Positions 5,210 to 59,409 of a stretch of 64,000 nucleotides of DNA are shown here, in pieces (positions within the stretch are counted from its first letter, which is position 1; each line of letters starts with the position of its first letter). The notes under the pieces were generated by a model, which saw only the letters and a list, made by a program, of their open reading frames with translations, was not told where the DNA came from and ran no database searches. The translations under genes and the position numbers were made by a program. Source of the DNA: Chloroflexota bacterium (GTDB taxonomy: Bacteria > Chloroflexota > Anaerolineae > UBA4142); the NCBI GenBank assembly GCA_037440365.1, contig JBBIUF010000006.1:10134-74133 (forward strand), read 5' to 3'.

Positions 5210-7294
5210 TTAGGCTTGCGCCAACGCTTCTTTGACGCGCGAGCGCACCAACGCGCGCGCTTCGCGCGGATCGGGCCACGCGGCGATCAGCGTGCCAACA
5301 ACCAGCACTCCAAAGCCGACCCACAACCACACCACCAGGGGGTTGATGATCACCTTGATTGTCGCCGTGCCGGCTGTGGCGTCAAAGCCAGCCAGAATAA
5401 TGTACAAGTCTTCTAGCGGAGTGGTGCGCACGGCAACCTCAGTTGTCCACTGCGACTGATCAGGATTGGGGCTAGCATAGAAATCTTTTTCTGGCACTAA
5501 CGTTGCAACCCGCACACCGTTTTGCAAAATCGTCAAGCGCGCGGTCACGGCTTGGTGGTTTTCAGTCGGGAAAATTTGCAAGCCGTCGTACTGAATTGTA
5601 TATTGTTTGAGCTGGGTCGTTTCACCCGCTTTCAAGTTCGCTTGGGTGTCCACCTGGTAAAACGATGATCCCGCAATACCGATCACGCCCAGCACCACGC
5701 CCACATGCACAATATAACCACCGTAACGGCGGCGGTTTTGCGTGACTAGGTTCAACGCCGCGGTGGCATAGTTTTCATTATACTGGCGATGTCGCGCGAC
5801 GATGCCGCGATAAAATTCTGAGACAATCGTCGCCAACACAAATGTCGCCGCGCTATAAGCGACAAAACCGTACCATTCGCGCACGCCGAGAGCGAACAGC
5901 ACAATCACAGAAATGACCGCCGCGGCAAACGGGCGCAAGAAATTACGCAACAAATTTTCGGCGGTCGCGCGCCGCCAACCGATCAACGGGCAAATCCCCA
6001 TCAAGACGATGAGCGCAAAAAAGATTGGGCCGTTGACTTGATTAAAGAACGGCGCGCCCACGGTAACTTTTTTCGCCGTGATCGCTTCACTGACCATCGG
6101 GAATATGGTGCCCCAGAGGGTTGCAAACGCCGCGCCAACCAGGATCAAGTTATTCAGCAGAAACGAGGATTCGCGCGAAATAAGCGAATCTAGTTCGTTT
6201 TCTTCTTTTAGATCGTTCACGCGATTGAACAACAGATACAAGAACGATAACAACGTGAGCGCCAGGAATACCAGAAACCAGGGACCCAAACTCGATACAC
6301 CAAACGCATGCACCGATTGAATGATGCCACTGCGCGTGATGAACGTTCCCAGGATCGACAGGATGAACGTTAGCATCACCAAGACCAGGTTCCAAATTTT
6401 CAGCATCCCGCGCCGTTCCTGGATCATGACGCTATGCAAAAATGCGGTGCCGGTCAGCCAGGGCATCAGACTGGCGTTTTCCACCGCGTCCCAGCCCCAG
6501 TAACCGCCCCAGCCCAATTCTTGATACGCCCACACCATCCCAAATAGCAAACCGAGCGAGAGGAACAACCACGAGATCAACGTCCAGCGGCGGGTCGTGC
6601 GAATCCACACATCGCTCAAGCGGCGCGTGAACAACGCCGCCATGGCAAACGCAAAGGGAATCGTAAAGCCGACATAGCCCAGATATTGCGTGACGGGGTG
6701 AATAAACATGCCGGGGTTTTGCAACAAGGGGTTCAAACCATTGCCATCGGGCGGCGTGAAATCAAGCATCCGGAATGGACTGCCAACCAACGCCGCCGTC
6801 CCGCCTGCCGTGAAGGGAGTGATGATGAAAAAGCCCGCCTTGGCGGGATCCACCGCGATCGTGATCAAAGCCAGGAAGAAGGCTTCGGCAAACGCCAAAC
6901 CGGCGGCGACATAGGGAATCAACTCTTGATTCTTGTCGTGATTTTGCACGAGCGCAATTGCGGTAAACACGGAAAGCAACCACGCCCAGAACAAGAGCGA
7001 ACCTTCCTGTCCGCCCCACAACGCCGAGATATTGTAAAGCAAAGGCTGAGCGATACTCGTTTGAATGGCAACGTACTCAAAACGAAATTGATGCGTGATG
7101 AGCGCCCATTCGAGAATACCAACCGCGAGAGTAGTCAGTGCGGCAGTCACAAAAATTGCATTGCGGGCACTGGCAAAAAGTTCGAGGCGATTACGGCGGG
7201 CGGCGATGAATGCCGCGCCCGCCGCATAGAGGGAAAGAAATAATCCGATCAGCAGTGACGCGTAGCCGAGGTCGGCCATTGCGAAGTCTGCCAT
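5210..7294 (-). CDS. ccmF: Cytochrome c-type biogenesis protein CcmF (heme lyase component)
   Basis: 694 aa and polytopic. It carries the WGGYWGWDAVENASLMPWL WWD motif. Confidence 0.92.
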   Translation of the reverse strand: MADFAMADLGYASLLIGLFLSLYAAGAAFIAARRNRLELFASARNAIFVTAALTTLAVGILEWALITHQFRFEYVAIQTSIAQPLLYNISALWGGQEGSLLFWAWLLSVFTAIALVQNHDKNQELIPYVAAGLAFAEAFFLALITIAVDPAKAGFFIITPFTAGGTAALVGSPFRMLDFTPPDGNGLNPLLQNPGMFIHPVTQYLGYVGFTIPFAFAMAALFTRRLSDVWIRTTRRWTLISWLFLSLGLLFGMVWAYQELGWGGYWGWDAVENASLMPWLTGTAFLHSVMIQERRGMLKIWNLVLVMLTFILSILGTFITRSGIIQSVHAFGVSSLGPWFLVFLALTLLSFLYLLFNRVNDLKEENELDSLISRESSFLLNNLILVGAAFATLWGTIFPMVSEAITAKKVTVGAPFFNQVNGPIFFALIVLMGICPLIGWRRATAENLLRNFLRPFAAAVISVIVLFALGVREWYGFVAYSAATFVLATIVSEFYRGIVARHRQYNENYATAALNLVTQNRRRYGGYIVHVGVVLGVIGIAGSSFYQVDTQANLKAGETTQLKQYTIQYDGLQIFPTENHQAVTARLTILQNGVRVATLVPEKDFYASPNPDQSQWTTEVAVRTTPLEDLYIILAGFDATAGTATIKVIINPLVVWLWVGFGVLVVGTLIAAWPDPREARALVRSRVKEALAQA

Positions 7295-7364
7295 AGCTTC
7301 GTCTCCTTCGTCAGTCAGACAGACGTACCCGGTTCAAACCACTGGGTGCGTTTTGAACGACCGA

Positions 7365-7817
7365 TTATTGTGTAGGTTGTGTCACTTGGGATTCGTACTT
7401 GGAGGGACATTTGACCAGCAAGGTGCTGGCAACAAACACGCCATCTGCACCCAGCTTGCCTTCGGCAACCACGCTTTCGCCTTGTTCAAACGTATCCGGC
7501 TTGACGCCTTTGTAAACAACCGGTTGAACCAGGTTGCCATCTTTGAGGTCGAATTTCAAAACCAGGGATTTATCATCAAACTGGATAGAGGTTTTGTCGA
7601 GCGGCGCATTCAAGCGCAACGGTTGATTGATCATCGCCGCGCGTTGCGCGTTCAACTCGGGCAACGTCAAATAGTAAATCGCGTTCGATTGAAACGACGA
7701 GACAGTGACATACACAATCACGCCGAGGATAATCAAACCACCAATCAAAAATTTTAGTTTGCCGCCAACCTTGACGGTCGCTTTCTGCTCCAACGCAGGG
7801 GCAGTCATAGTACTCAT
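7365..7817 (-). CDS. ccmE: Heme chaperone CcmE, Cys-type (CxxxY) variant
   Basis: 150 aa with an N-terminal TM anchor and an OB-fold-like body (VVYKGVKPDTFEQGESVVAEGKL). The C-terminal LLVKCPSKYES occupies the place of the canonical LAKHDENY. Confidence 0.85.
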   Translation of the reverse strand: MSTMTAPALEQKATVKVGGKLKFLIGGLIILGVIVYVTVSSFQSNAIYYLTLPELNAQRAAMINQPLRLNAPLDKTSIQFDDKSLVLKFDLKDGNLVQPVVYKGVKPDTFEQGESVVAEGKLGADGVFVASTLLVKCPSKYESQVTQPTQ

Positions 7818-8021
7818 GGCTTTCTCCTTGAATGGGTGTGTGACCTTGACTATGTTCAGAATATCACCAACAAGTCAAAAAGCGGTCAGAGAGCAGTCCA
7901 ATGCAAGTCCAAGTTTGTTTTAGGTTGCCCAACGGGATTGTGCTATAATACCAGCATAACCTTGCGTGGATGGGGCAAGTCGCGCAAGGTTACGTTGTGT
8001 CTCTGAGGAGTATGTGTTCGA

Positions 8022-9080
8022 GTGAATCGCATGCGTAAAATTATTCTCGCCGGCGTGTTTTTATTCGCATCGTTGTTGATCGTTCAATGTCGCGCAACGC
8101 CGATCTTGAATGTCAGCACAACCCAACCACCATTACCCGTCGCCACAGTGACGCCGGTCTCGACCGTGACGCCAACCGGAACGCAGACTCCAAATATCGC
8201 GGTTGAACCAGCGCCCGTTCCGCCGACCCCAACACCCCGTCCAACCCCAACGCCGATCCCCTGGTCTCAGTATGCCAGCATCGAACACAATATCACGTAT
8301 TGCACTGTGGACGGCGAAGCACTAAAACTCGATCTCTATTTTCCAAAAACGCCAAGCACGCAACCCATGCCTGTATTGATCAACATTCATGGCGGTTCGT
8401 GGAGTTTTGGCAGTAAGACCGATAGCGAAACGCGCGTGGATATTCCCAGTCTCGTCGAGCAAGGTTTCGTCGTCGCCGGCATTGACTATCGGCTTGCGCC
8501 CGCGCACAAATTTCCAGCGCAGATCGAAGATGTGAAATGCGCCATCCGATTTTTGCGCGCGCATGCGGCGCAATACCATCTCGATGTCAATCACTTTGGC
8601 GCGTGGGGTTGTAGCGCAGGCGGACACCTCGTCGCGCTCGCCGCCGTCGCGGATCAACGCGCTGGTTTTGATGTGGGCGAGTACGCCAATCAATCAAGCC
8701 GACTCCAAGCCGTGGTCCCCATTTCCGCCCCAGAAGACCTTGCGCTCTACAATGCCACCGCACGCGCCGATATGTTGCTCCGCGTGTTCAATATCCAGAC
8801 CACGCCCAACCCAATGCTCGCCGATGCAAGTCCCATCCACTATGTCACAAAAGACGCCCCACCGTTTCTCATCATCCAAGGCGATCATGACAACATCGTC
8901 ATTCCCGCCCACGCGGAATCCATGCTCACCCGCTTGAACGCAGTCCATGTTCCGGCACAATTGGTTCTCGTCAAAAACGGGCATCACTGTTTACCCACGG
9001 GCAATCCACCTCCCGAACCCAGCCGTAGCGAGATTACGAAAAAGATCGTCGACTTTTTTGATCAGACCTTGCGCCATTAA
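8022..9080 (+). CDS. Secreted alpha/beta hydrolase (esterase/lipase-like)
   Basis: 352 aa with a signal-like N-terminus and a Pro/Thr-rich linker. It has HGGSW (oxyanion), GCSAGGH (GxSxG), and later D and H residues. GAGGAG lies upstream of the GTG start. Confidence 0.8.
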   Translation: MNRMRKIILAGVFLFASLLIVQCRATPILNVSTTQPPLPVATVTPVSTVTPTGTQTPNIAVEPAPVPPTPTPRPTPTPIPWSQYASIEHNITYCTVDGEALKLDLYFPKTPSTQPMPVLINIHGGSWSFGSKTDSETRVDIPSLVEQGFVVAGIDYRLAPAHKFPAQIEDVKCAIRFLRAHAAQYHLDVNHFGAWGCSAGGHLVALAAVADQRAGFDVGEYANQSSRLQAVVPISAPEDLALYNATARADMLLRVFNIQTTPNPMLADASPIHYVTKDAPPFLIIQGDHDNIVIPAHAESMLTRLNAVHVPAQLVLVKNGHHCLPTGNPPPEPSRSEITKKIVDFFDQTLRH

Positions 9081-33350: not shown

Positions 33351-35684
33351 ATGCCTCAAGAACCGGAAAAGACCCCCAAAGTTCTCGCGCTGTATCTTGA
33401 ACTTTCGCAATATCCCATTCTTGCGCCGACGATTCGCGCGCGCATGCGGCAAGAACTTTTTTCGCGCGGCGTCATTGCCCGCGCCGCATTCGAAGCCGAA
33501 GCGGAGGACAAGGCGCGGCGCTCGCAAGAACTCGAAGGACTCGTTGACCCCATCGCGCAAGAATCCGCCGAGGTGTGGGAACGCCGCGTGCAACAAACGC
33601 GCGACAATCTCACCGAATTTTATTTTGCCTATAACTTGTCACACGATATCTTTAAAGAGATCGTGCAATCGGTCGTCGCACAACGCAACCCCAATCAAAA
33701 AGTGATCCTGGCGTTCAACCCAGAACTCGCGCCGATTGACATGGTCTTGGCGCAAGGTGAACAATACGAAGCCTTGCCGCCCGCCGAACGCCAATTGGTC
33801 CACCACCACTTGCGCGAAACCATCGTGGTGCTGACCAAAGCCATCATCAGCGATCAACTCTCCTTTATTCGCGTCGCCAAAGAATGGTTCACGGTTGCCG
33901 ATATCCGCGAAATTCGCGCGCGCAAAATCGGCGAAGGGAAAATCGGCGGCAAAGCGGCGGGCATGTTGCTGGCGTGGAAAATTCTCCAACAGCAAGCCAC
34001 CGATGAAGGCATTGACGTTGCCGCGCATATCGCCCTACCCGATTCGTACTATATCGGCGCGAATGTGCTGTATGATTTTAATTTGCAAAATGGTTTATGG
34101 TTCTCGGTCGATCAAAAATATAAATCGCGCGAAGAAATCATCGAAGATTATCCCGAGATCCATCAAGCCTACCTTGCCGCGCACTTTCCCGAAGATATCA
34201 CAGCGCAATTGCGCGAATTGCTGGCGCGGCTAGGCAACCAACCGATCATCGTGCGCTCGTCGAGTTTGCTCGAAGACAGTTTCGGCACGTCGTTCGCGGG
34301 CAAGTACGATAGTTTCTTTTGCGCGAATCAAGGCACGCTGGATGAAAATCTTACCGCGCTGATCCACGCGATCAAATCCGTTTACGCCTGCGTGCTCACG
34401 CCCGATGCGCTCGAATATCGGCGGCGCATGGGCTTGCTGGACTATGACGAACGCATGGCAATTTTGCTTCAAACTGTGCAAGGCAATCAACATGGTCAAT
34501 ATCTATACCCCACGCTCGCGGGCGTTGGCTATAGCCATAATCCCTTCCGTTGGAATCCACAAATTCGGCGCGAAGATGGTTTCGTGCGCCTTGTCTGGGG
34601 CCTTGGCACACGCGCCGTCGAACGGGTCGGCAGTGATTTTCCGCGCATGGTTGCGCTCAGTCACCCCAACCTGCGTCCCGAATCTAGCGCAAATGAAATT
34701 CGCCGCCACTCGCAACGGTATGTTGATGTGATCGATCTGAACGCCAACGAATTTACAACCCAGCCACTAGCGTCCGTCATTTCACCCGACGATCCCGCGT
34801 TGCCTTACCTGGTTTCCGAAGACAAGGGCGATTACATTCAACCACTGTTTTCAAATCCCCGGCTGGCACAACCAGAGAACCTTGTTCTCACTTTTGAGAG
34901 TTTGCTTAAAAAGACACGCTTTGTGCCATTGATGAAAACCTTGTTGCAACGTTTGGAAAAAAATTATAATTTCCCGGTGGACATTGAATTTACCGCCGAT
35001 CTCGTGCGCGACGGCACAAATCCGCCGGACGTTCGCGTGCATCTCTTGCAATGCCGACCGCACACGCAATACCAAGTCGTCGGCGAAAAGATCGAACTAC
35101 CGGCCGCCGTACCGCCAGCCGATATATTCATTTACACGCAGAACCGCTTGATCCCGCAAGGCATTGTCCCGCAAATTAGTCACATTGTCTATGTCAGCCC
35201 GGAAAAATATAGCCAAGCCGCAAACCCCACGACCAAGCTTGAACTCGCGCGCGTCGTCGGACGCTTGAACAAAGCACTCGAAGGCAAAACGTTTATCCTG
35301 ATGGGCCCAGGACGCTGGGGTAGCGCCAACGCCGACCTCGGTGTGCGAGTTGGATACGCCGATATTAACAATACACGCGTGTTGGTGGAAATCGCCTTGC
35401 CGCGCGGCGAAGGCATCCCCGATGTTTCCTATGGCACGCACTTTTTCCAAGACCTGGTTGAAGCGCACATTTATCCCTTGCCACTCTTCCCTTCCGAACG
35501 CGGCACCGTGTTCAACCGCGCGTTCATCCTGAATGCGCCAAACCAACTCGCCGTATTTTCACCCAACGATACCGCCTACGCCGATTACGTGCGCGTGGTT
35601 GATATCCCTGCGGTCATGCAAGGCCGCCATCTCGAAATGATCATGGACGAAGACAAGAGCGAAGCACTCGCCTATTTCAAATAA
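33351..35684 (+). CDS. PEP/pyruvate-binding (PPDK_N ATP-grasp-like) domain protein
   Basis: 777 aa with GGKAAGMLLA and IIVRSSSLLEDSFGTSFAGKYDSF, typical of pyruvate phosphate dikinase or PEP synthase nucleotide-binding domains. I cannot find a phosphohistidine swivel motif by eye. Confidence 0.7.
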   Translation: MPQEPEKTPKVLALYLELSQYPILAPTIRARMRQELFSRGVIARAAFEAEAEDKARRSQELEGLVDPIAQESAEVWERRVQQTRDNLTEFYFAYNLSHDIFKEIVQSVVAQRNPNQKVILAFNPELAPIDMVLAQGEQYEALPPAERQLVHHHLRETIVVLTKAIISDQLSFIRVAKEWFTVADIREIRARKIGEGKIGGKAAGMLLAWKILQQQATDEGIDVAAHIALPDSYYIGANVLYDFNLQNGLWFSVDQKYKSREEIIEDYPEIHQAYLAAHFPEDITAQLRELLARLGNQPIIVRSSSLLEDSFGTSFAGKYDSFFCANQGTLDENLTALIHAIKSVYACVLTPDALEYRRRMGLLDYDERMAILLQTVQGNQHGQYLYPTLAGVGYSHNPFRWNPQIRREDGFVRLVWGLGTRAVERVGSDFPRMVALSHPNLRPESSANEIRRHSQRYVDVIDLNANEFTTQPLASVISPDDPALPYLVSEDKGDYIQPLFSNPRLAQPENLVLTFESLLKKTRFVPLMKTLLQRLEKNYNFPVDIEFTADLVRDGTNPPDVRVHLLQCRPHTQYQVVGEKIELPAAVPPADIFIYTQNRLIPQGIVPQISHIVYVSPEKYSQAANPTTKLELARVVGRLNKALEGKTFILMGPGRWGSANADLGVRVGYADINNTRVLVEIALPRGEGIPDVSYGTHFFQDLVEAHIYPLPLFPSERGTVFNRAFILNAPNQLAVFSPNDTAYADYVRVVDIPAVMQGRHLEMIMDEDKSEALAYFK

Positions 35685-35686
35685 AA

Positions 35687-35718
35687 AATCAGGGCGACTC
35701 GAGTCGCCCTGATTTTTT
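35687..35718 (+). terminator. Rho-independent terminator
   Basis: AATCAGGGCGACTC pairs with GAGTCGCCCTGATT, a 28-nt perfect palindrome, followed by TTTTTT and preceded by an A-run. Confidence 0.85.
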
Positions 35719-35739
35719 GCTCATGCCTAGATCAATCCC

Positions 35740-36816
35740 GTGCCTTTCTCATTCCCAAATCTCAATCTGCTAGACAGCCGCGAATTTATGCAGACATCCT
35801 CTCGTCGAATCAAACGCCGACAGTTGCTTTATCTCGGTGTGCTTGGACTGGCTGTGTTTCTGCTTCTGCCACACCTGCTCGGCTTTCACCGCGTCCTGAA
35901 CATTCTGCGCGGGGCGCAACCTGTCTATGTCATTCTCAGCTTGCTTGCCGAAGTCTCGCGCTATTTTATCAGCGCCGCGTCAACGCTCATCCTCGCCCGC
36001 TTGTTTGATCGCCGCGTACCGTTTCTACCGATGACCGAAGCGTTCTTTGCCAGTTCTGCGGCGAACCGCATCTTTTCAACTGGCGGCGCGCCCGGTATGC
36101 TCATCCGCTTGCTCTTTCTCGGCAAGCACAATGTCTCGGCAGGCGCAGTCGCCACAATCTATCTCATTGAGGATATCGCCGGGTTAGCCGTCGGCAGTAT
36201 CGTCTTCTTTGCCGGCATCTGGACCTTGGCGACGAAACAAACGTCCGCCAACGTTGCCACCAATACCGCTCTGATTGCTTCGTTTGCCTCGCTCGCGCTC
36301 ACTGCCGGTTTGCTTTACGCCTTGCGTTATCGCGCTACCATCGAACGCATCGCGCATTGGCTGGCGCTCAAACTCGACGCTCTTGCCGCGCGAATTACCC
36401 GCCGTCCCTTTTACTCACCCGCGCGCGTGCAACACCTCCTTGATGATTTCTACGCTGGCTTGGCGCTCGCCCGCCGCGCACCGCGCACAGTTGCTCTTGT
36501 TTTTATCCTCAACGTGGTGCGCCATGCCGCCGGGCTCGCTGTGTGGTACTTTGCATTTTTCGCTTTGGGACAAACCATCGCACCCGGCATTCTGATCTTG
36601 ATCTATACGCTGGCAAGTGTGCTCTCCACCACCAGTGCCGTACCTGGCGAGGTCGCGATTATGGGCACTGGCTCTGCCATCCTATTCCTTTCGTTCGGCG
36701 TCTCGCCGGATGCCGCCTTGCTCGCGTTGCTGTTATCCCGCGCCATCGCCTTCTGGCTTCCCCTGCCGATCGGCTTGCTCGCGCTCTGGCGCTTGCGCCG
36801 GCAACACGATTTGTGA
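35740..36816 (+). CDS. Flippase-like / lysylphosphatidylglycerol synthase TM-region family membrane protein (UPF0104)
   Basis: 358 aa from a GTG start; the alternative ATG is at 35788 (MQTSS). It begins RRIKRRQLLYLGVLGLAVFLLLPHLLG and has about 8 TM helices typical of this family. Confidence 0.65.
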   Translation: MPFSFPNLNLLDSREFMQTSSRRIKRRQLLYLGVLGLAVFLLLPHLLGFHRVLNILRGAQPVYVILSLLAEVSRYFISAASTLILARLFDRRVPFLPMTEAFFASSAANRIFSTGGAPGMLIRLLFLGKHNVSAGAVATIYLIEDIAGLAVGSIVFFAGIWTLATKQTSANVATNTALIASFASLALTAGLLYALRYRATIERIAHWLALKLDALAARITRRPFYSPARVQHLLDDFYAGLALARRAPRTVALVFILNVVRHAAGLAVWYFAFFALGQTIAPGILILIYTLASVLSTTSAVPGEVAIMGTGSAILFLSFGVSPDAALLALLLSRAIAFWLPLPIGLLALWRLRRQHDL

Positions 36817-36872
36817 TCCCAGGTCATTGATCCAACACTGGCATTCATCCGCGCGCGTTCAAACAAAAAAAA

Positions 36873-36906
36873 CGGCGGATTTCGCTCGATTATGCGAAAT
36901 CCGCCG
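36873..36906 (-). terminator. Rho-independent terminator ending the minus-strand rha-aor operon
   Basis: CGGCGGATTTCGC pairs with GCGAAATCCGCCG, a 13-bp stem with an 8-nt loop. The A-run at 36864-36872 on the + strand gives the T-run on the minus strand. Confidence 0.8.
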
Positions 36907-36923
36907 CAGGTGTTCTTATGCGC

Positions 36924-37535
36924 TCACCATTTTTTATAACCGTCGCTCATGCCGCGATATTCAATAAATGGCTCGTTGATCAATTTTGCCTTGAGCGCAA
37001 TCTCGCATGATTCTTCCAGCGTGGACGACCAGTGAAAGGCTTCGTCCAGCGTTTGCCCAATGGCGAAACTGCCATGCCCGCGCAACATGACGATTTTGTA
37101 CTGCGCAAGCGTGTGCGCCAAATTGTTTGCCATCTCCGGCGAACCCGACGCAAACTCTTCCCAGATGACCGGCACTTTTTTCAGCAAATACGATGCTTCA
37201 TTGTCAATCGGCACAATCTCATCCCGCGACAACGAATACGCAATCGCGGTGCGCGGGTGGCAATGCACAATCGCGAGCGCGGGCGTTTTCAGATAAATGA
37301 TGCGGTGCACGAGTAATTCGGACGACGCCAGCGCCACGCCGCTATCATTTTTATCAAGCCGGGTCTCGATCAGATCGTGCGGTTTGAGTCTTCCCAGCAT
37401 CGCGCCGCGCCGTTTGATGATCAGATGATCGCCAAGACGAATGCTAATGTTGCCGCCATGCGAACTGACCATATCCGCGTCATACAAGTCGCGCCCAATT
37501 TCTTGGAATTGTTGAACGATGCGTTCATCAATCAT
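36924..37535 (-). CDS. Class II aldolase/adducin family protein
   Basis: 203 aa with SSHGGNISIRL and a His cluster (HCHP...GHG). Its ATG overlaps the aor stop in an ATGA. Confidence 0.8.
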   Translation of the reverse strand: MIDERIVQQFQEIGRDLYDADMVSSHGGNISIRLGDHLIIKRRGAMLGRLKPHDLIETRLDKNDSGVALASSELLVHRIIYLKTPALAIVHCHPRTAIAYSLSRDEIVPIDNEASYLLKKVPVIWEEFASGSPEMANNLAHTLAQYKIVMLRGHGSFAIGQTLDEAFHWSSTLEESCEIALKAKLINEPFIEYRGMSDGYKKW

Positions 37536-39325
37536 CGCGCCGCCTCCATCAAATTCTCAATCTGCAATTCTTTCAATTTCGCCGGTTTGGGCACGCCGTT
37601 TTCGTCCCAGCCGCGCACGCGATAGTATTCGACCAGCATCGGCTCCAACTTGTTGACCCAGCCCTTGCTCGGTCCGGCCACAATGGGCTCGTTCAAAATG
37701 CGCGCTGGCAAGGTGTCATCCGCTTGCGTAAATCCTTCGCGCAAGTTATACAAGCGTTCCATGTTATAAATACGCTCGCCCGCGCGAACCAGATCGCCGG
37801 TAGCGTACTGCACGCCCGTGACCGCCGACAAGGTGCGCGCAAAATATTCTTCAGCCACGCCCATATTGGTGAACTTGCATAGCACAAGCGAATCAATCGC
37901 CGCTGAGACGTTTTGATGCAACGCGACAAATGAGGATTTGCCTTGCACCTGAAAACGATCAATCAGTTTCGGCAAGCCCAGCACTTCCAAGCCGAGCATA
38001 TTGCCGCGCATGTGACACGCGCCGCGATTGGAGGTAGCGAACAAGAGTCCTTGCCCCTGCATACCGCGTGGATCGTAAGCCGGCATTTCCATCCCTTTAA
38101 CACTCATCGAAAGTTCCGGCGCGCCATACTTTTGCGCAAGCCGCAGACTACCGTCCGCCAGTTCCGCGCCAAGATCGCGGCGCATCGCCATCGCTTCCAG
38201 GGTCGCGGCAAACAAATCCGCGCGCCCAAACCGCAGATCGGATTGGAGCAAACCGCGTTCGGTCAATTCCATCGCGCATCCAATCGTCGAACCGGCGGAA
38301 ATCGTATCGAATCCCAGGTCATTACAAATTGAGTTGGCTTCAATGATCGCGGCAAGATCATCACTGCCGCACTGCGCGCCGAACGACCACGCCGTTTCAA
38401 ATTCGGGACCTTCGCCTTCCACCTTGTCAGTTTTGCTGATGCGCGTGCAACCAATCGGACACGCCCAGCACGCCGCATTTTTGACGAGATATTTTTCGGT
38501 GAGGGTTTCGCCAGAAATTGCTTCCGCGCCTTCAAACTGGCTTTGCTGAAAATTGCGCGTGGGCAATGCGCCTGCTGTGTTGATAATGTTCATCATCACA
38601 ACCGTGCCAAATTCAGGCAATGCCTGGCTCGTGAGCGGACTCTGGCGCAACATTTTGCGCGCTTCATACAGCATGAACTTGAATTGTTCCTGCTCCAGAA
38701 TCTCCGGACGCGCTTTGCCTTCGACGACAATCGCCTTGAGATTTTTACTGCCCATGACTGCGCCCGCGCCGCCACGCGCCAACGCGCGTTCGCCATCGTT
38801 CATGATCGCCGCAATGCGGCTCTGATTTTCACCCGCTGGTCCAATGCACAACACGTTCCGTTTGTTATTATTCTGCCCCAACGCCTTCGTCGTTGCGCGC
38901 ACCCGTTGTCCCCACAAGTGCGCCGCATCCTGGATCGTAATGCCGCTCGGTTTGATTTCGATGTACACTGGCTTGACCGCTTTGCCACGCACAATCAGCG
39001 CGTCATAGCCAGTCTTTTTGAACTGCATCCCCCAGAACCCACCCGAGTTGGCATCGAGCACCGTACCGGTCAGCGGACTCTTCGTCGTCACCGAAAAACG
39101 ATTGCTGGTTTGATATCCAGTTGCCGTGAGCGGACCGTTCGCAAAGATCAACACATTATCCGGCGACAATGGATCGACTTTTGGTCCAACCAAGTCCCAC
39201 AACAAGCGCGCGCCCAAACCGCGGCCGCCCAGAAACAGCCGCGCCATCGCTTCGTCAAGTGGATAATTTTTGACCACGCCCGTGCTCAAATCCACATCCA
39301 GAATTTTTCCTGCCCATCCGTGCAT
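37532..39325 (-). CDS. aor: Aldehyde:ferredoxin oxidoreductase (tungstopterin AOR family)
   Basis: 597 aa. The N-terminus is MHGWAGKILDVDLSTGVVKNYPLDEAMARLFLGGRGLGARLLWD. The 4Fe-4S ligand motif is CWACPIGC. Confidence 0.9.
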   Translation of the reverse strand: MHGWAGKILDVDLSTGVVKNYPLDEAMARLFLGGRGLGARLLWDLVGPKVDPLSPDNVLIFANGPLTATGYQTSNRFSVTTKSPLTGTVLDANSGGFWGMQFKKTGYDALIVRGKAVKPVYIEIKPSGITIQDAAHLWGQRVRATTKALGQNNNKRNVLCIGPAGENQSRIAAIMNDGERALARGGAGAVMGSKNLKAIVVEGKARPEILEQEQFKFMLYEARKMLRQSPLTSQALPEFGTVVMMNIINTAGALPTRNFQQSQFEGAEAISGETLTEKYLVKNAACWACPIGCTRISKTDKVEGEGPEFETAWSFGAQCGSDDLAAIIEANSICNDLGFDTISAGSTIGCAMELTERGLLQSDLRFGRADLFAATLEAMAMRRDLGAELADGSLRLAQKYGAPELSMSVKGMEMPAYDPRGMQGQGLLFATSNRGACHMRGNMLGLEVLGLPKLIDRFQVQGKSSFVALHQNVSAAIDSLVLCKFTNMGVAEEYFARTLSAVTGVQYATGDLVRAGERIYNMERLYNLREGFTQADDTLPARILNEPIVAGPSKGWVNKLEPMLVEYYRVRGWDENGVPKPAKLKELQIENLMEAAR

Positions 39326-39355
39326 GATAACTTCCTTTCCGATCAGTTATTTTGT

Positions 39356-40424
39356 CTAGCCACGCTGAGCTAGTTCGTTTTTTTCGTACGCTTTGATTTC
39401 ATTCACGAGCGCCATGCCCACTGGAACATTTTGCCCGACGCAATAATAATCCCAGACAGCGCCAAACGGAAACGCTTTTAATTCTTCGAGCAATACCAGA
39501 CGTTGCGTGTAATCGCCGATAATTTCCAAATGCCGCAACTGTGCCGTCGGCTCAACCAAAGCCATGAGCAAAGCCCGCAACGTATTGCGCGCGCCGATCA
39601 CCCACGCCGCGATGCGGTTAATGCTGGCGTCAAAATAATCCAAACCAATATGCGTGCGGCTAAGATAATCGCCCCGCACCAGTTCTTGCGCGATGGCTTG
39701 CAAATCGTCATTAAACGCAACCACATGATCACTGTCCCAGCGCACACCGCGGCTGACATGCAACAAAATTTCATTCACGTACAAGAATGTAGCAGATAAT
39801 TTATCGGCAATTGTTTCAGTCGGATGAAAATGTCCCGTGTCGATCGGGGATCCAAATGTTCGTCACACAGGGCGTGCCCAAATGCTTGCCAAACGCTTCG
39901 CCGATCTTGCGGCTCGCAATGCCATGTTCAATCCAAAATTGTCGCGTCCCCGCGTCATAGCTTGCGAGTGTAAACCCGGCATCGGCTTTGGGATGCGAAA
40001 AATACGATGGATTGAAATCCAATCCGTGCCGATTCGCTTTTGCCCAAGCGAGCCAATTCGCAAAATGTTCCGGGCGCAATTCGTTGCGTTCAACGCGCTT
40101 GTCGCCAGTTTCAGCGTAGAGCGCGTGCAGGTTCAAACGATGCGTACCGGGGATCAGCCGATATGCTTGATCGAGATCGCGGCGCAGTTCGTCGCCCGTG
40201 CGCGCGCGCCCGGGATAATTCCCAGTTGCCGCAATCCCACCAGTCAGTTCAACGTCGGGCGCTTCAAAGCCACGCACATCATCGCCTTGCCAGCAATGTA
40301 AACTCAGCGCCAGAGTCGCCAGTGCGGCCAGCGCGCGATCCGTGTCCACGCCAATTTGCGCGTAACGTTCTCGGGCAAGTTGATACGCATTCTGAATTTG
40401 TAAATCACTCGGAGGATTATGCAT
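39356..40424 (-). pseudogene. rhaA: L-rhamnose isomerase (RhaA) disrupted by an internal deletion and frameshift
   Basis: The N-terminal ORF (40424..39816) runs MHNPP...[13 protein letters not shown]...[12 protein letters not shown] and then reads RHGTFSSD-stop. A different frame from 39862 reads [42 protein letters not shown]...[16 protein letters not shown]...[10 protein letters not shown]. The segment that separates NIWIPDG from LDxGHFHPTE in E. coli RhaA (about 65-70 aa, from memory) is missing. Confidence 0.8.
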
Positions 40425-40433
40425 AATTGACCT

Positions 40434-41258
40434 TTAGAAGATGGTTTGTTGCACGCCAAACGCTTGACAGATCGCGCGAATTTCTTCGGCGGATAACCCT
40501 TCGCCCGCTTCGCCATTCGCAAGGTTCAGATATTCGTATTTCGCCCCAGTTTCAGCGTATTCAACCCGATCTGCCGCCCGCTTGACGGATTGATCGGAAC
40601 GTGCCATCACCCCATGCTTGCCCCACAGTACAACCCGATGCGCCCGCAGTGATTCGACCGTCGCCATCATCAATTCAGCAGACCCAGGAAGTAAAAACGG
40701 CAGACAGCCAATCCCCTCTGGCAATTGCACAATCATTTCCGGTTGCCATTGCAATAAATGACGATTCAAAAATGTTTCGTTTTGGTACCGCGGAATGTGG
40801 CTAAGGTAGGTGAGATGCGGCGGTTGCGCGTGAATGACCGCATGAAAGTTTGTGCCGGTCACGCGCACTTGATCACGATGCACGGCGAGATGCGAATTGA
40901 ATTCGCTCGTCAATTTTTGAAACAAACGGCGCGGCGAGGTATAAAGTGTCCCAGTCACACCACCCGCATCCACTCTAACAAAACCCAGGTTCGCCGCTGG
41001 GTCTTGGATAATTTCGCGCAAGCGGCGACCCGACCCGGTAACGAGAAACGAACGCCCTTCGAGTTCGGGCAGGGGTTCGGGCAACACAATGATTTCGGTA
41101 TTGGGAAACCGGCGGCGTGGATCAATGTCCCAGCCGATATACACTGAGATATTACCCGCCGCGCCTTCGCTCGCTTCAATCTCGGACAAGCGTTGTCCCG
41201 CTTCACCGATCAGCGATGCGAGTTCGTCTAATTCTGGATAAGGGGCTTGGATGCTCAT
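40434..41258 (-). CDS. rhaD: Rhamnulose-1-phosphate aldolase
   Basis: 274 aa, the same length as E. coli RhaD. It has EGAAGNISV, FLVTGSGRRLREIIQDPAANLGFVRVD and class II aldolase His residues. Confidence 0.8.
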   Translation of the reverse strand: MSIQAPYPELDELASLIGEAGQRLSEIEASEGAAGNISVYIGWDIDPRRRFPNTEIIVLPEPLPELEGRSFLVTGSGRRLREIIQDPAANLGFVRVDAGGVTGTLYTSPRRLFQKLTSEFNSHLAVHRDQVRVTGTNFHAVIHAQPPHLTYLSHIPRYQNETFLNRHLLQWQPEMIVQLPEGIGCLPFLLPGSAELMMATVESLRAHRVVLWGKHGVMARSDQSVKRAADRVEYAETGAKYEYLNLANGEAGEGLSAEEIRAICQAFGVQQTIF

Positions 41259-41285
41259 GGTTTACCTCAACTCTAGAAAATAAAA

Positions 41286-42758
41286 TCAGGTTCCGATCAA
41301 TTGATTGAATCGCGTATACGCGCGATCCCAGCCCGCGCTCTGCGCCGGTTCAAACGTCTGCATCTCAAACGAGTGAGCGACGATGGCGCGTGCGGCTTGA
41401 ATCGATTCGATGTGACCGAGCGCGAGGGCTTGCCCCAATATATTCCCAATCGCGGTTGCCTCGATGGGACCCGTGATCACGCGCCGCCCGGTTGCATCCG
41501 CCGCAAACTGGCTCAGCAAGCGATTCTGCGTTCCGCCACCGACAATGTGCAACGGTTCAAGCGGATGACCGATCATCGCTTCGAGATGTTCCAACACCCA
41601 GCGATATTTGAGCGCGAGTCCTTCGAGCGCGCACCGTACAATTTCGCCGCGCGTTTCCGGCGCGCGCTGTCCAGTGCGTTCGCAATACACGCGAATGCGC
41701 GCAGGCATATCGCCGGGTTTCAAGAAATCGTCGGCGTCCACGTCAATCACCGCGCAGAACGGTTCGGCTTGCGCCGCCATTTGCGTGAGTTCGGCGTAGG
41801 ATAAATCATTGCCTTGCCGCGCCCACGTGCGCCGACATTCTTGCACCAACCACAATCCCGCAATATTTTTGGAGAAACGGAATGTGCCACCGACGCCGCC
41901 TTCGTTCGTAAAATTATTTTTCAAACTCACAGCATTGATCACCGGCTCGCGCAATTCCGCGCCCATGATCGACCAGGTGCCGGAACTGATCCACGCAAAG
42001 TTGTCATTTTGCGCCGGTACCGCCGCGACCGCCGAGCCGGTATCGTGACACGCGGGCGCAATCCCCACAAGGTGATTCGCGCCGATCTCGTCAGTCACAG
42101 AAGGCAACAACGATCCCAGGACAGTTCCGGATGGAATCACGCGCGGAAAAATTCGGCGCGGAATGTTGAGCGTGGCAAGCAAGGCATCCGCCCACGCGCG
42201 CGTGCGTGGATTATAGCATTGCGTCGTCGTCGCAATACTAAACTCGGACGCCACTTGCCCGGTCAGCCAATAATTGAACAAATCCGGCATGGTCAAAAAT
42301 GTTTGCGCGTGCGCCAACGCCGGCGCGTGCGCCTCAACCAGGGAGAGCAATTGATACAAGGTGTTCAGTTGCATAAACTGAATCCCGGTGCAATCAAAAA
42401 TATGTTCGCGCGGCATTTTGGCAAACGCGGCCTCCACCATGCCATCGGTGCGGCTGTCGCGATAATGAAACGGGTTACCGATTAGCGCGCCCTGCTCGTC
42501 GAGCAAGCCGTAATCCACGCCCCAGGTGTCCACCCCAACGCTCGCCAAATCCGTGCCATGTTGCTTGGTGGCAAGCACAAGCCCGGTTTTAATTTCGTGC
42601 CACAAACGCAACACGTCCCAATGCAACCCATCGGGCAAACGCACCGGCGTATTTACAAAACGATGGCTTTCGGCGAGCGCAAGTTTGCCGTTTGCCAGCG
42701 CGCCGACGATCGCCCGGCCGCTTTCCGCTCCAAGATCGAGTGCCAGGTAATGCGACAT
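41286..42758 (-). CDS. rhaB: Rhamnulokinase (FGGY family)
   Basis: 490 aa. The N-terminus is MSHYLALDLGAESGRAIVGAL...RFVNTPVRLPDGLHWDVLRLWHEI. The FGGY C-terminal motif is HIVGGGTQN. Confidence 0.85.
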   Translation of the reverse strand: MSHYLALDLGAESGRAIVGALANGKLALAESHRFVNTPVRLPDGLHWDVLRLWHEIKTGLVLATKQHGTDLASVGVDTWGVDYGLLDEQGALIGNPFHYRDSRTDGMVEAAFAKMPREHIFDCTGIQFMQLNTLYQLLSLVEAHAPALAHAQTFLTMPDLFNYWLTGQVASEFSIATTTQCYNPRTRAWADALLATLNIPRRIFPRVIPSGTVLGSLLPSVTDEIGANHLVGIAPACHDTGSAVAAVPAQNDNFAWISSGTWSIMGAELREPVINAVSLKNNFTNEGGVGGTFRFSKNIAGLWLVQECRRTWARQGNDLSYAELTQMAAQAEPFCAVIDVDADDFLKPGDMPARIRVYCERTGQRAPETRGEIVRCALEGLALKYRWVLEHLEAMIGHPLEPLHIVGGGTQNRLLSQFAADATGRRVITGPIEATAIGNILGQALALGHIESIQAARAIVAHSFEMQTFEPAQSAGWDRAYTRFNQLIGT

Positions 42759-42768
42759 ACGTATACCC

Positions 42769-43563
42769 CTAGTCTAGCGCATCGTTCGCGCGCTCAGCGC
42801 CACAGAGTGTCAACGCGACACCGAATTGTTTGAGTTGGTTAATCCATTGCGGCGCTAGATCGCTGTCGGCATAAAACCGCGAAACTTGGTCCGTGCGCGC
42901 GAACGGGATCAGCGTCACTTTGCCGAATTTGGTTGCATCAATCAACGCGATGACAGAATCCGCCGCCGCGATCATTTTATTTTTGAGTTGGGCTTCTTGA
43001 AGATCCACTTCGGTCAAACCAGCTTCGGGGGTAAATCCAAAACATGAAACGAACGCGGTTTTGACATGCAAATCTTTTAGAATGGATTCGCTGAGGGAGC
43101 CGCGCACGGAAATCCCATCGGGATGCAAGACCCCGCCGAGGAGAATCACGGTGTTCGATAAATCTTGCGCGAGCGCGCGCGCAACTTCGATCCCGTTCGT
43201 GATGACAGTGAGATTATGCCGATCTTGGAGAAACTGTGCAATCGAGTAAACGGTTGTGCTAGCATCAAAGAGGAGTGAGTCGCCATCCGAAACTAGAGTA
43301 GCGGCACGGCGAGCCATACATTGTTTCGCAGAGACATTCACATATGCGCGCGTGGTAAAAGCAGAAATGCGCGGTTCACGATTGTCTGTGACCACGGCAC
43401 CGCCATGCACGCGCTCCAACGCCCCGGCTTGCGCGAGCGCGGTCAAGTCGTTGCGAATCGTGCCTTCGGAAACATTCAACCGTTTGGCAAGGTCAGGCAC
43501 GCGAATTCCAGGTTGTTCGCGAAGCAGATCAAGAATTCTTTGGCGACGTTCAAATGTGGTCAT
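42769..43563 (-). CDS. DeoR family transcriptional regulator
   Basis: 264 aa with an N-terminal HTH (RRQRILDLLREQPGIRVPDLAKRLNVSEGTIRNDL) and a DeoR C-terminal sugar-phosphate sensor domain. Confidence 0.88.
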   Translation of the reverse strand: MTTFERRQRILDLLREQPGIRVPDLAKRLNVSEGTIRNDLTALAQAGALERVHGGAVVTDNREPRISAFTTRAYVNVSAKQCMARRAATLVSDGDSLLFDASTTVYSIAQFLQDRHNLTVITNGIEVARALAQDLSNTVILLGGVLHPDGISVRGSLSESILKDLHVKTAFVSCFGFTPEAGLTEVDLQEAQLKNKMIAAADSVIALIDATKFGKVTLIPFARTDQVSRFYADSDLAPQWINQLKQFGVALTLCGAERANDALD

Positions 43564-43823
43564 CGGTTCATCCTTGAAACCAGATTGATCAACCTATTTG
43601 CCTTGATTAGATCAAGTGAAGCAAATCGCGCCACAACAACCATTACTTGCGATATTTTTTCGTTTAGTTGTTGATATTTATATATTTTTGTTGATTTTTA
43701 CGAAATTATAATACTCTGATTGTTGTTTTTTGTCAATAATTGTGTTATTCAATCAATCCAACGCGTTGTGAATGTGCAAATTCGAATTCGAGCGAAATGT
43801 GGAAATTAGCGCGCTGACGTGGT

Positions 43824-43845
43824 ATGGTTATAATATGGTTATAAT
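43824..43845. repeat. Perfect tandem 11-mer (ATGGTTATAAT x2) creating two -10-like boxes
   Basis: The two copies are at 43824-43834 and 43835-43845, read directly. They lie 25 nt upstream of the 43870 start codon. Confidence 0.7.
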
Positions 43846-43869
43846 TCGAGGCATCGCAAAGGAGAATGA

Positions 43870-44433
43870 ATGTTAGACAAAGTAACAACGATGGTCCGGC
43901 ATTGGTTGCCGTTGGCGCTTGTGATCACTGCCATGTGCGGTTTGGTCTATCTGGTTGCGCAACAAACTCTGCGCATCGGCGCCAACGATCCGCAAATTCA
44001 AATTGCCGAAGACGCGGCAAACGCTTTGGCGCGCGGAGCCAGCGCCCAAGCGGTGCTTCCAACAAACCCGGTTGATGTGGCATCCAGTCTTGCGCCGTTT
44101 GTGGTTATCTTGAACGCGAGTAAGGAACCCATGGCAACATCTGGTTTGTTGCACGGGCAAACACCAACATTACCTGCTGGAGTATTGGATGCCGCCAAAG
44201 CCCAAATCGAAAATCGCGTGACCTGGCAACCGGAACCAGGCGTGCGGATCGCGCTAGTCGTGGTCAGTTACGCCGGTGCCAACCCAGGATTCGTCGTCGC
44301 CGGTCGCTCATTGCGTGAAATCGAAAAACGCATTGACCTGCTTGGCTTGATCGTTGGCGCGGCATGGCTTGCCACGATGTCCGCTTCTGGAATCGTCGTG
44401 GCATTTGCAGAATTCGCGCTCGCAAAACACTAA
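43870..44433 (+). CDS. Membrane-anchored protein with N- and C-terminal TM helices, unknown function
   Basis: 187-aa ORF with AAGGAG upstream. I recognise no motif. Confidence 0.55.
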   Translation: MLDKVTTMVRHWLPLALVITAMCGLVYLVAQQTLRIGANDPQIQIAEDAANALARGASAQAVLPTNPVDVASSLAPFVVILNASKEPMATSGLLHGQTPTLPAGVLDAAKAQIENRVTWQPEPGVRIALVVVSYAGANPGFVVAGRSLREIEKRIDLLGLIVGAAWLATMSASGIVVAFAEFALAKH

Positions 44434-44445
44434 GAGAAATCAACG

Positions 44446-45162
44446 ATGAGTGAAAAACAAAAATGGTACGTGGTTGTGTTATATGCCATAGCGATGGCGT
44501 GGGTCGAAGCGGCAGTCGTGGTTTATTTGCGCACACTGATCAATCGGCTTGTGCCGTACCAACCTGATCCACTGCCCAACTTGGGCGCGTTTGGCGGCAT
44601 TGAGTTGGTGCGCGAATTTGCAACGCTCGTCATGTTGCTAACGGTGGGCGGGCTGGCGGGACGTACCTGGCGCAGTCGCGCGGGCTATGCGGTGATCGCG
44701 TTCGGCATTTGGGATATTTTCTATTACCTCTTTCTCGTGCCGACGAGCGGCTGGCCCGCCTCAGTTTGGGATTGGGATATTTTATTTCTGATTCCCCTGC
44801 CGTGGTGGGGTCCGGTGATCGCGCCAATCAGTATTTCGCTGTTGCTGATCCTAGGTGGCACACTCGTTTCGCAATATGATACGCCAACGCGCCCAGTCTT
44901 ACCGGGACGCTGGACAATCCTCACGGCAACACTAGGCGCGTTGTGCGCGCTGTACGCATTCATGCAAGATGCCCTTCGCGTTTCAAGCGCAGGCACGCAA
45001 GCAGTCCTCAACACCTTGCCCACTTCATTCAACTGGATCGCATTTTTGCTGGGGCTTGCCTTGATGGCGTTGCCAGTGATCGATGTGGCACGGCGCGTGT
45101 TTTGGGCTAGTCCACCAAGCTTTCTACAAATTGCATCAACCGATACACATCGGCAAAATTAG
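44446..45162 (+). CDS. Polytopic membrane protein, unknown function
   Basis: 238 aa with 6-7 TM helices. It is Trp-rich (SGWPASVWDWDILFLIPLPWWGP). Its 3' end overlaps the convergent gene by 56 nt. Confidence 0.55.
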   Translation: MSEKQKWYVVVLYAIAMAWVEAAVVVYLRTLINRLVPYQPDPLPNLGAFGGIELVREFATLVMLLTVGGLAGRTWRSRAGYAVIAFGIWDIFYYLFLVPTSGWPASVWDWDILFLIPLPWWGPVIAPISISLLLILGGTLVSQYDTPTRPVLPGRWTILTATLGALCALYAFMQDALRVSSAGTQAVLNTLPTSFNWIAFLLGLALMALPVIDVARRVFWASPPSFLQIASTDTHRQN

Positions 45163-59193: not shown

Positions 59194-59199
59194 CGATGC

Positions 59200-59409
59200 A
59201 ACGCGGTGATGGACAGAGTACGCGAATCTTCAAGTTTAGAGAGTCGTCCTTGGCTGAAACGACGACCTTGAACTTCGCCGAACGACACTCCGGAGCGTTA
59301 CGGTTTGCTCCCGTTATCAAGCCGCAAGGCGATAGAAAATCTATCGCGAAAAAAGGTGGCACCACGAGAAATCCTCTCGTCCTTTTACGGGCGAGAGGAT
59401 TTTTATTTT
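59200..59409 (+). promoter_or_regulatory. T-box riboswitch leader (probable Asp specifier) with terminator
   Basis: Stem I base: AACGC (59200-59204) pairs with GCGTT (59295-59299). It has a GA/K-turn-like GGUGAUGGA, AGAGUA, an AGAGA bulge (59238-59242) and a distal GCUGAAA loop. The specifier-loop 3' side is GAA-C-GAC-A (GAC at 59284-59286, purine at 59287). The T-box sequence is AAAAAGGUGGCACCACGAG (59355-59366 core). The terminator is AATCCTCTCG pairing with CGAGAGGATT (59370-59401), followed by TTTTATTTT. Confidence 0.8.

Follow-up and report, generated by a model that had tools for sequence, protein, structure and literature searches.

Introduction

In Escherichia coli, L-rhamnose and L-fucose are degraded through parallel phosphorylative pathways (RhaA-RhaB-RhaD and FucI-FucK-FucA, followed by AldA or FucO), which share the products dihydroxyacetone phosphate (DHAP) and L-lactaldehyde; lactate, in turn, is consumed by LutABC. 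Tungstoenzymes of the aldehyde:ferredoxin oxidoreductase (AOR) family are widespread in anaerobes, and the physiological substrate is known for few of them. Here we report on a 64,000-nt stretch of a Chloroflexota genome (assembly GCA_037440365.1, contig JBBIUF010000006.1, positions 10,134–74,133), hereafter referred to as the window, in which a rhamnose gene unit ends with an AOR gene (aor) and a short class II aldolase gene. Comparative analysis indicates that these two genes are a conserved module of anaerobic Chloroflexota, probably encoding an L-lactaldehyde:ferredoxin oxidoreductase together with the FucA-like aldolase that feeds it.

Among the closest described systems, the rhamnose regulons reconstructed by Rodionova et al. 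(PMC3870299), which include those of Chloroflexales, led to the description of the RhaEW protein, and lldEFG (equivalent to lutABC) was placed in some of these regulons, with RhaEW as the source of lactate; ferredoxin is not mentioned anywhere in that paper. In vitro, lactaldehyde is one of the aldehydes oxidised by the tungsten enzyme WOR1 of Eubacterium limosum (PMC11725836), and a passage of a paper on metagenome-assembled genomes (MAGs; PMC9324843) speculates on a role of AOR in lactaldehyde oxidation. A literature search on AOR in connection with rhamnose, fucose, lactaldehyde or the Anaerolineae retrieved no experimental report, and no paper showing the synteny or testing the function considered here. 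The statement of a first-pass annotation of this DNA, that no link between AOR and deoxy-sugar catabolism was known to be established, is thus valid as far as experiments are concerned, but it has to be tempered by the speculation and by the WOR1 activity just mentioned.

Results

Conservation of the aor-aldolase pair

The two genes are the last of the minus-strand unit:

37532–39325, minus strand: aor, encoding an AOR of 597 aa with AFOR_N and AFOR_C domains, candidate L-lactaldehyde:ferredoxin oxidoreductase.
36924–37535, minus strand: short FucA-like class II aldolase of 203 aa, NCBIfam PRK08660 (Aldolase_II domain), with its start overlapping the aor stop.

Their conservation was followed in a first set of 60 related genomes (61 genomes in the RhaA and AOR tallies), in a wider scan with one genome per species, which gave 80 loci, and in a phylum sample of 401 evenly drawn Chloroflexota genomes. 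In the wider scan synteny was counted by mapping reference proteins onto the loci, which, three short contigs apart, all carry Anaerolineae or Chloroflexota titles; the synteny tests cover Chloroflexota only. The upstream context was scored at the 53 loci having at least 4 kb upstream of aor, and the downstream context at the 64 loci having at least 3 kb.

The AOR orthologues form a sharp group, with 75–85% identity in 12 of the 60 relatives and next-best matches not exceeding 49%. The small aldolase follows AOR in all 12 orthologue genomes and is absent at two loci of 49% identical paralogues. In the wider scan, AOR was found directly upstream of the aldolase in all 71 loci with enough flanking sequence, in one of which an alpha-L-fucosidase is inserted between the two genes, and the cultured Anaerolinea thermolimosa IMO-1 is among the carriers of the pair. 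In 33 of 77 loci the stop codon of aor overlaps the start codon of the aldolase, and in 16 more the two are at most 30 nt apart, a tight junction that suggests co-translation. In the phylum sample, aldolase homologues of at least 53% identity had an adjacent AOR (57–85% identical) in 6/6 fetched loci reaching upstream, a seventh being at a contig end, and homologues of 52% identity or less, mostly from small Dehalococcoidia-like genomes, had none. No fused AOR-aldolase protein was retrieved among the longer proteins, which is weak evidence. As judged from gene order, anaerobic Chloroflexota have in aor and the small aldolase a conserved two-gene module.

The three short contigs (L078, L080 and L093, ≈6 kb each) are binned as Falkowbacteria, Bacteroidota and Syntrophothermus, and carry a pair 78–80% identical to that of Anaerolineae and of the window; they are probably mis-binned.

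Genomic context of the pair

Deoxy-sugar genes were found on the same strand upstream of aor in 39/53 loci. Thirty-four of these loci are of the rhamnose type (RhaA, RhaM or a RhaI-like isomerase) and 8 of the fucose type (FucI and/or FucU), four of the latter having both gene sets; a RhaB-like kinase is usually included, and often a RhaD-like aldolase, a DeoR regulator and an ATP-binding cassette (ABC) transporter. On the other side of the pair, lutA, lutB or lutC follows on the same strand in 23/64 loci, and RhaEW, a fusion of an aldolase with a short-chain dehydrogenase/reductase (SDR), stands beside the pair in 6 loci. Locus L111 shows the complete chain, transporter-rhaM-rhaB-rhaD-rhaA-moaD-aor-aldolase-rhaEW-lutA-lutB-lutC. 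No FucO, AldA or RhaZ-type enzyme was found in the operons with the pair, the sole other lactaldehyde enzyme being RhaEW in the 6 loci mentioned. In the 61 genomes, the AOR orthologue is present in 13 and RhaA in 12, both are present in 9, and the two are adjacent in 5. The synteny of aor with rhamnose or fucose genes, which had been proposed as a check, is observed in Chloroflexota at 39 of the 53 loci, and is missing at the other 14.

In four loci of Aggregatilineaceae-like relatives (L129, L130, L132 and L133, at ≈6800–8230, and probably also in L131 and L135) a xylose-isomerase-like TIM barrel gene with weak, RhaI-like similarity to RhaA precedes aor, and is itself preceded by an ABC transporter and a 49–51% identical RhaB-like kinase. 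Such loci appear to represent another kind of rhamnose locus that supplies the same pair.

The AOR protein

The 597-aa product has the whole architecture of its family, with AFOR_N at residues 6–203 (262 bits) and AFOR_C at residues 220–589 (475 bits), and is collinear over its full length with the solved structures 9MQX (E 1e-184), 1AOR (E 3e-175) and 8C0Z (E 5e-150). In the alignment to 9MQX, the motifs CWACPIGC, GPEFE, GACHMRG and LCKF all match the same residues, so that the Cys-x2-Cys-x3-Cys and the distal fourth Cys ligands of the [4Fe-4S] cluster are kept, together with a Glu and a His near the metal, which we take to be E313 and H448 of 1AOR. By these features, the aor product is a canonical member of the family, falling in the AOR clade, and presumably a tungstopterin enzyme; we infer both tungsten as its metal and ferredoxin as its acceptor.

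A MoaD-family gene (TIGR01687) is located just before aor in many relatives, whereas no iron-sulfur or FAD/NAD electron-transfer subunit of the WOR1/AorABC type stands beside aor, either in the window or in related loci. Neither a molybdenum or tungsten cofactor (Moco/Tuco) riboswitch nor any other RNA element was detected before aor in the window and in the four related loci scanned. The genome has one Moco-type riboswitch, upstream of FmdE-like and MobB genes on another contig.

The small aldolase

The small aldolase scores 207.5 bits against the curated family PRK08660 (NF006413; cut-off 203), an uncharacterised "aldolase" family, and 130.8 bits against Pfam Aldolase_II. Since it is far below the cut-offs of the FucA equivalogs TIGR01086 and NF005302, it is not a curated FucA. 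The nearest solved relative is the Thermus thermophilus FucA (E 1e-31, 36% identity), and the predicted model (mean predicted local distance difference test, pLDDT, 89.6), flexible in the C-terminal tail, has the same protein (2FK5) as top fold match, with template modelling (TM) scores of 0.87/0.90 and E 3e-22. Residues H91, H93, S71, G44 and G28 do not vary among 46 sequences, and N29, E73 and H154 are conserved in at least 90% of them. Among these positions are the counterparts of N29, S71, E73, H92, H94 and H155 of the E. coli FucA, which cover zinc binding, phosphate binding and acid/base catalysis; in the E. coli enzyme, we take H92, H94 and H155 as the metal triad, E73 as the acid/base Glu, and N29, S71 and G44 as phosphate ligands. 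An AraD-type 4-epimerase role is less likely, because the FucA-type Glu73 is retained. The AOR-linked aldolases share, in addition, a conserved C-terminal EYR..Y..W tail, which is absent from the unlinked PRK08660 homologues.

Residues, fold and synteny thus narrow the role left open by the first-pass annotation for this extra aldolase-fold protein, which may now be described as a FucA-like ketose-1-phosphate aldolase tied to AOR; cleavage of L-fuculose-1-phosphate or L-rhamnulose-1-phosphate would be its predicted reaction. The rhaD gene is missing from 8/30 rhaA loci, and three rhaD-less genomes searched as a whole (G012, G020 and G002) contain neither a RhaD above cut-off nor RhaEW. In these three genomes the small aldolase appears as the only candidate for the aldol cleavage and, for this reason, it can be the pathway aldolase.

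A rule of one aldolase per sugar, with the small aldolase as FucA and the c4 aldolase as RhaD, was rejected as a full explanation, because fucose-type loci also have a RhaD-like aldolase, their kinases score as rhamnulokinase-like, and locus L094 has a third aldolase. In this fucose-type locus a class II aldolase of 240 aa (7082–7804) lies between the RhaD-like aldolase and moaD-aor, making three aldolase-fold genes.

Stand-alone PRK08660 aldolases (L164–L185) are 41–52% identical to the small aldolase, are ≈190 aa long, lack the C-terminal tail and have no AOR nearby. They occur in 9/9 genomes of one small-genome Chloroflexota family, where the DHAP shunt is a candidate role.

The pair could also act on another ketose-1-phosphate, such as 5-deoxyribulose-1-phosphate or methylthioribulose-1-phosphate (from the DHAP shunt handling radical-SAM by-products) or D-ribulose-1-phosphate, with AOR oxidising acetaldehyde, methylthioacetaldehyde or glycolaldehyde, and with the rhamnose neighbourhood reflecting shared DHAP chemistry only. 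We consider this very unlikely, even if the family is uncharacterised and has unlinked members without sugar context in all nine small genomes of one Dehalococcoidia-like family, the fold matches include the 5-deoxyribulose-1-phosphate aldolase 6BTD, and the pair is kept in genomes and loci without rhaA. No DHAP-shunt kinase or isomerase was seen beside the pair, rhamnose or fucose genes are instead upstream in most of the scored loci, lutABC directly downstream points to lactate as the product, and the RhaD-less rhamnose operons need an aldolase.

Proposed function

The reading of the pair as an L-lactaldehyde:ferredoxin oxidoreductase with its feeding FucA-like aldolase, which we regard as the probable one, would involve four steps. 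L-rhamnose (through RhaA and RhaB) or L-fucose (through FucI and a kinase) would be converted into a 6-deoxy-ketose 1-phosphate; a class II aldolase, RhaD and/or the small aldolase, would split it into DHAP and L-lactaldehyde; AOR would oxidise L-lactaldehyde to L-lactate with reduction of ferredoxin; and LutABC would oxidise lactate to pyruvate. In a fermenter, lactaldehyde oxidation would replace 1,2-propanediol excretion, and would provide low-potential electrons for H2 or syntrophy and further ATP through acetate, a gain expected from the established bioenergetics of AOR and of pyruvate metabolism.

Lactaldehyde is suggested as the AOR substrate because the pair follows rhamnose and fucose genes, whose shared aldehyde is L-lactaldehyde, because the lactate consumer lutABC often directly follows the pair, and because the operons hold no other lactaldehyde enzyme apart from RhaEW in a few loci. 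The ferredoxin-linked L-lactaldehyde oxidoreductase envisaged in the first-pass annotation is accordingly strongly supported by comparative genomics, although sequence cannot prove the activity. The aldehyde substrate, the aldolase substrate and any complex are predictions, whereas gene order, family membership, the conserved catalytic residues, the synteny counts and the broken rhaA were observed directly. As a tentative extension, in our opinion rather doubtful, AOR and the aldolase might form a complex that converts 6-deoxy-ketose 1-phosphates into DHAP, lactate and reduced ferredoxin without free lactaldehyde, thereby containing this reactive and toxic by-product, as a ferredoxin-linked counterpart of RhaEW or DmpFG; the tight junction of the two genes may hint at such a complex.

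The rhamnose unit and its broken rhaA

In the window, the pair is preceded by the remaining genes and signals of the unit:

43708–43736, minus strand: promoter-like site TTGACA-17-TATTAT, 5' of deoR, with 11/12 consensus matches, the best site in 36500–44200.
42769–43563, minus strand: deoR, first gene, DeoR-family regulator of 264 aa (HTH_DeoR and DeoRC).
41286–42758, minus strand: rhaB, rhamnulokinase-like FGGY kinase of 490 aa (TIGR02627, 480 bits over positions 1–454; cut-off 528).
40434–41258, minus strand: rhaD, rhamnulose-1-phosphate aldolase-like, 274 aa (NF002963, 166 bits; cut-off 170).
39356–40424, minus strand: rhaA pseudogene, in two frames, with a 209-nt deletion.
36872–36907, minus strand: intrinsic terminator at the end of the unit (14-bp stem with 9 GC pairs, 8-nt loop, T8 tail).

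Open reading frame (ORF) listing and family scans agree on a co-directional minus-strand unit (deoR, rhaB, rhaD, rhaA, aor and the 203-aa class II aldolase) with gaps of 10, 27, 9 and 30 nt from deoR to aor. The aldolase start codon overlaps the aor stop codon as ATGA (CGATGATT), with a GGAGG 8 nt upstream, and the unit is closed by a single strong hairpin (36907–36872) whose 14-bp stem runs into T8. Gene order and 9–30 nt gaps, the ATGA overlap, the terminator and the family assignments (AFOR_N and AFOR_C, Aldolase_II, FGGY, DeoR) were all as first annotated, and the coordinates given there are exact. A DeoR gene heads the rhamnose or fucose operon in at least 10 related loci, and rhaB is conserved across related loci. 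The closest solved relative of the rhaD product is the E. coli RhaD (E 6e-29, collinear). On their profile scores, just below the equivalog cut-offs, the rhaB and rhaD products are RhaB-like and RhaD-like.

On the contrary, rhaA had been taken as intact, and alignment with orthologues does not bear this out. The gene is in two frames, an N-terminal part at 39816–40424 (Pfam RhaA positions 2–190) and a C-terminal part at 39356–39862 (positions 257–417); DNA alignment with four intact orthologues reveals a 209-nt deletion, with the junction at 39844/39843 of the window, which throws the frame onto a TGA at 39816–39818. The segment corresponding to the deletion is bordered by a short TGGAC repeat in one orthologue. 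A second rhaA was not found in the MAG (4.06 Mb in 168 contigs, 93% complete). Neither the 35-nt deletion junction nor its 25-nt left flank had an exact match in the metagenome contigs, so that the deletion is known from a single assembly. A short-read assembly artefact is unlikely, given that 209 nt were lost without a long repeat. The rhaA of the present genome is a pseudogene, and should be annotated as such: the rhamnose branch is interrupted and the aor-aldolase pair is intact. With rhaA broken and with RhaB and RhaD below their cut-offs, the window does not contain a canonical rhaBAD set.

The unit could also be a decaying remnant without current function, with the pair simply carried along as the rhamnose operon is being lost. 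The frameshifting deletion and the lack of a second copy fit such a decay, which is nonetheless hardly probable, because the other five genes are full length and 68–88% identical to their orthologues, neither the promoter-like site nor the terminator is damaged, the pair, which is found on its own in other genomes, can work without rhaA, and the deletion itself is known from a single assembly.

Other genes of the window lie around the unit. A gene for a 777-aa protein whose sole domain is the nucleotide-binding PPDK_N, and after it a gene for an LPG_synthase_TM membrane protein (33351–36816, plus strand), run convergently to the rhamnose unit and may share its terminator; two ORFs of 187 and 238 aa (43870–45162, plus strand), divergent from deoR, have no Pfam match. 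A T-box leader at 59197–59387 on the plus strand (Rfam RF00230, 102.8 bits) is unrelated to the rhamnose unit.

Other lactaldehyde routes and weight of the evidence

No FucO or AldA homologue is present within the operon, as noted in the first-pass annotation, but this absence does not extend to the whole genome, which contains one Fe-type alcohol dehydrogenase (Fe-ADH, beside an AOR paralogue), two Aldedh genes and a microcompartment fragment. Therefore, the AOR of the operon is not the sole conceivable lactaldehyde sink. The lutABC genes are on another contig (C4:72386–75181), and neither RhaEW nor an orthologous FucI was found in this genome. At the end of contig C90 (L155, 6697–15875), the microcompartment fragment encodes an EutN/CcmL vertex protein together with an EutJ-like ATPase and an acylating-type aldehyde dehydrogenase of 469 aa. 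Between these genes and a class II aldolase gene 4–5 kb away are a GAF/PAS-cyclase signalling gene and a glycoside hydrolase family 1 (GH1) gene.

On contig C71 (9356–12551) an AOR paralogue (≈41% identical) is directly beside the only clear Fe-ADH of the genome, an arrangement that suggests acid/aldehyde/alcohol interconversion. A LacI-linked sugar locus on contig C18 (L154, 2197–18534) encodes an ABC transporter, an aldo/keto reductase, an FGGY kinase, a Zn-type alcohol dehydrogenase, a class II fructose-bisphosphate-type aldolase, a PfkB kinase, a divergent FucI-like isomerase and two FucU/RbsD proteins. It was discarded as a fucose pathway feeding the pair, since it appears to encode the pathway of another sugar, aldolase included.

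These genes bear on a further explanation, namely that AOR is a general detoxifier of aldehydes escaping from sugar fermentation, lactaldehyde among them, rather than a stoichiometric step, with the main lactaldehyde flux going elsewhere, to 1,2-propanediol or into a microcompartment. The six AOR paralogues of the genome, the microcompartment fragment with its aldolase and aldehyde dehydrogenase, the Fe-ADH, the pairs located away from deoxy-sugar genes and the known broad specificity of the nearest AOR-clade enzymes (1AOR, 9MQX and 8C0Z) would all agree with it, and the word "detoxification" is used in PMC9324843. A discrete orthologue clade locked to an aldolase, placed in operons between the aldolase step and lutABC, is instead what would be expected of a catabolic enzyme, and most rhamnose and fucose operons with the pair have no other lactaldehyde enzyme; we hold a detoxifying role to be unlikely.

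Several observations do weigh against lactaldehyde oxidation coupled to the small aldolase. The broad specificity of AORs means that synteny cannot fix the substrate, and the relatives are kin, so that the counts describe a pattern rather than a statistical test and overstate independent support. The AOR orthologue occurs without RhaA in four genomes and RhaA without the orthologue in three, and 14/53 loci, including that of A. thermolimosa, whose rhaA is 1.1 Mb from the pair, have no neighbouring deoxy-sugar genes, implying that the pair can also be expressed alone. Many loci have RhaD, and sometimes a third aldolase or RhaEW too, which weakens the need for the small aldolase as the pathway aldolase. 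In the present genome, moreover, the only rhaA is inactivated, lutABC is not adjacent to the pair, the operon has no ferredoxin gene, and the microcompartment fragment may be a second route for deoxy-sugar aldehydes, lactaldehyde included.

Discussion

Through its gene neighbourhood, a discrete AOR clade is tied in the comparative data to a single aldehyde, L-lactaldehyde, and to a single pathway family, rhamnose and fucose catabolism, with LutABC encoded next door. Anaerobic Chloroflexota are abundant in digesters, sediments and aquifers and, if the proposed function is true, they would ferment deoxy-sugars from plants and algae with no excretion of 1,2-propanediol, through a tungsten-dependent route that supplies H2 formation and syntrophy with low-potential electrons, and ATP formation with pyruvate. 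Should the AOR-aldolase complex exist, the clade would gain a defined substrate and a partner, in a family for which the substrate is a long-standing puzzle, and anaerobic rhamnose and fucose fermentation would be richer in energy, with extra H2 and ATP via pyruvate in comparison with excreted propanediol. The idea is testable, because the cultured A. thermolimosa IMO-1 has the pair.

Compared with the rhamnose and fucose pathways of E. coli, the isomerase, kinase and class II aldolase steps are the same, with DHAP and L-lactaldehyde as products, and the RhaB-, RhaD- and RhaA-like genes are homologous. The difference is in the fate of the aldehyde, for which a pterin/[4Fe-4S] AOR and ferredoxin are proposed here in place of the NAD-dependent AldA or the reductase FucO, in the extra small aldolase locked to AOR, and in the DeoR-type regulator. 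As for the aldolase itself, the metal, acid/base and phosphate residues are identical to those of the FucA of T. thermophilus HB8 (2FK5/2FLF) and of E. coli, with TM scores of 0.87–0.90, whereas the EYR..Y..W tail is proper to the AOR-linked proteins, and their substrate is a prediction.

With regard to the oxidoreductase, homology with the Pyrococcus furiosus AOR (1AOR) and with 9MQX, 9G7J and 8C0Z extends over the full length (E 1e-184 to 5e-150) and includes the [4Fe-4S] cysteines, the Glu and the His; unlike these enzymes, described as broad-range and without a sugar-pathway context, the AOR reported here has an aldolase as its constant partner, genes for deoxy-sugars and lactate as neighbours, and no electron-transfer subunit of the AorA/AorC type beside it. 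WOR1 of E. limosum is likewise a tungsten enzyme of the AOR family, for which lactaldehyde oxidation was measured, whereas for the aor product it is predicted; WOR1 is multisubunit, bifurcates between NAD and ferredoxin, is preceded by a Tuco riboswitch and is tied to lactate metabolism, whereas partner subunits and riboswitch are lacking at the loci scanned here. The closest parallel in arrangement is RhaEW (YuxG) of Bacillus subtilis and Chloroflexus aurantiacus (PMC3870299), where a class II aldolase is also coupled to a lactaldehyde oxidiser in rhamnose loci joined by lactate genes; RhaEW, however, is a fusion with an NAD-dependent SDR, whereas here two separate, often overlapping genes combine the aldolase with an unrelated AOR.

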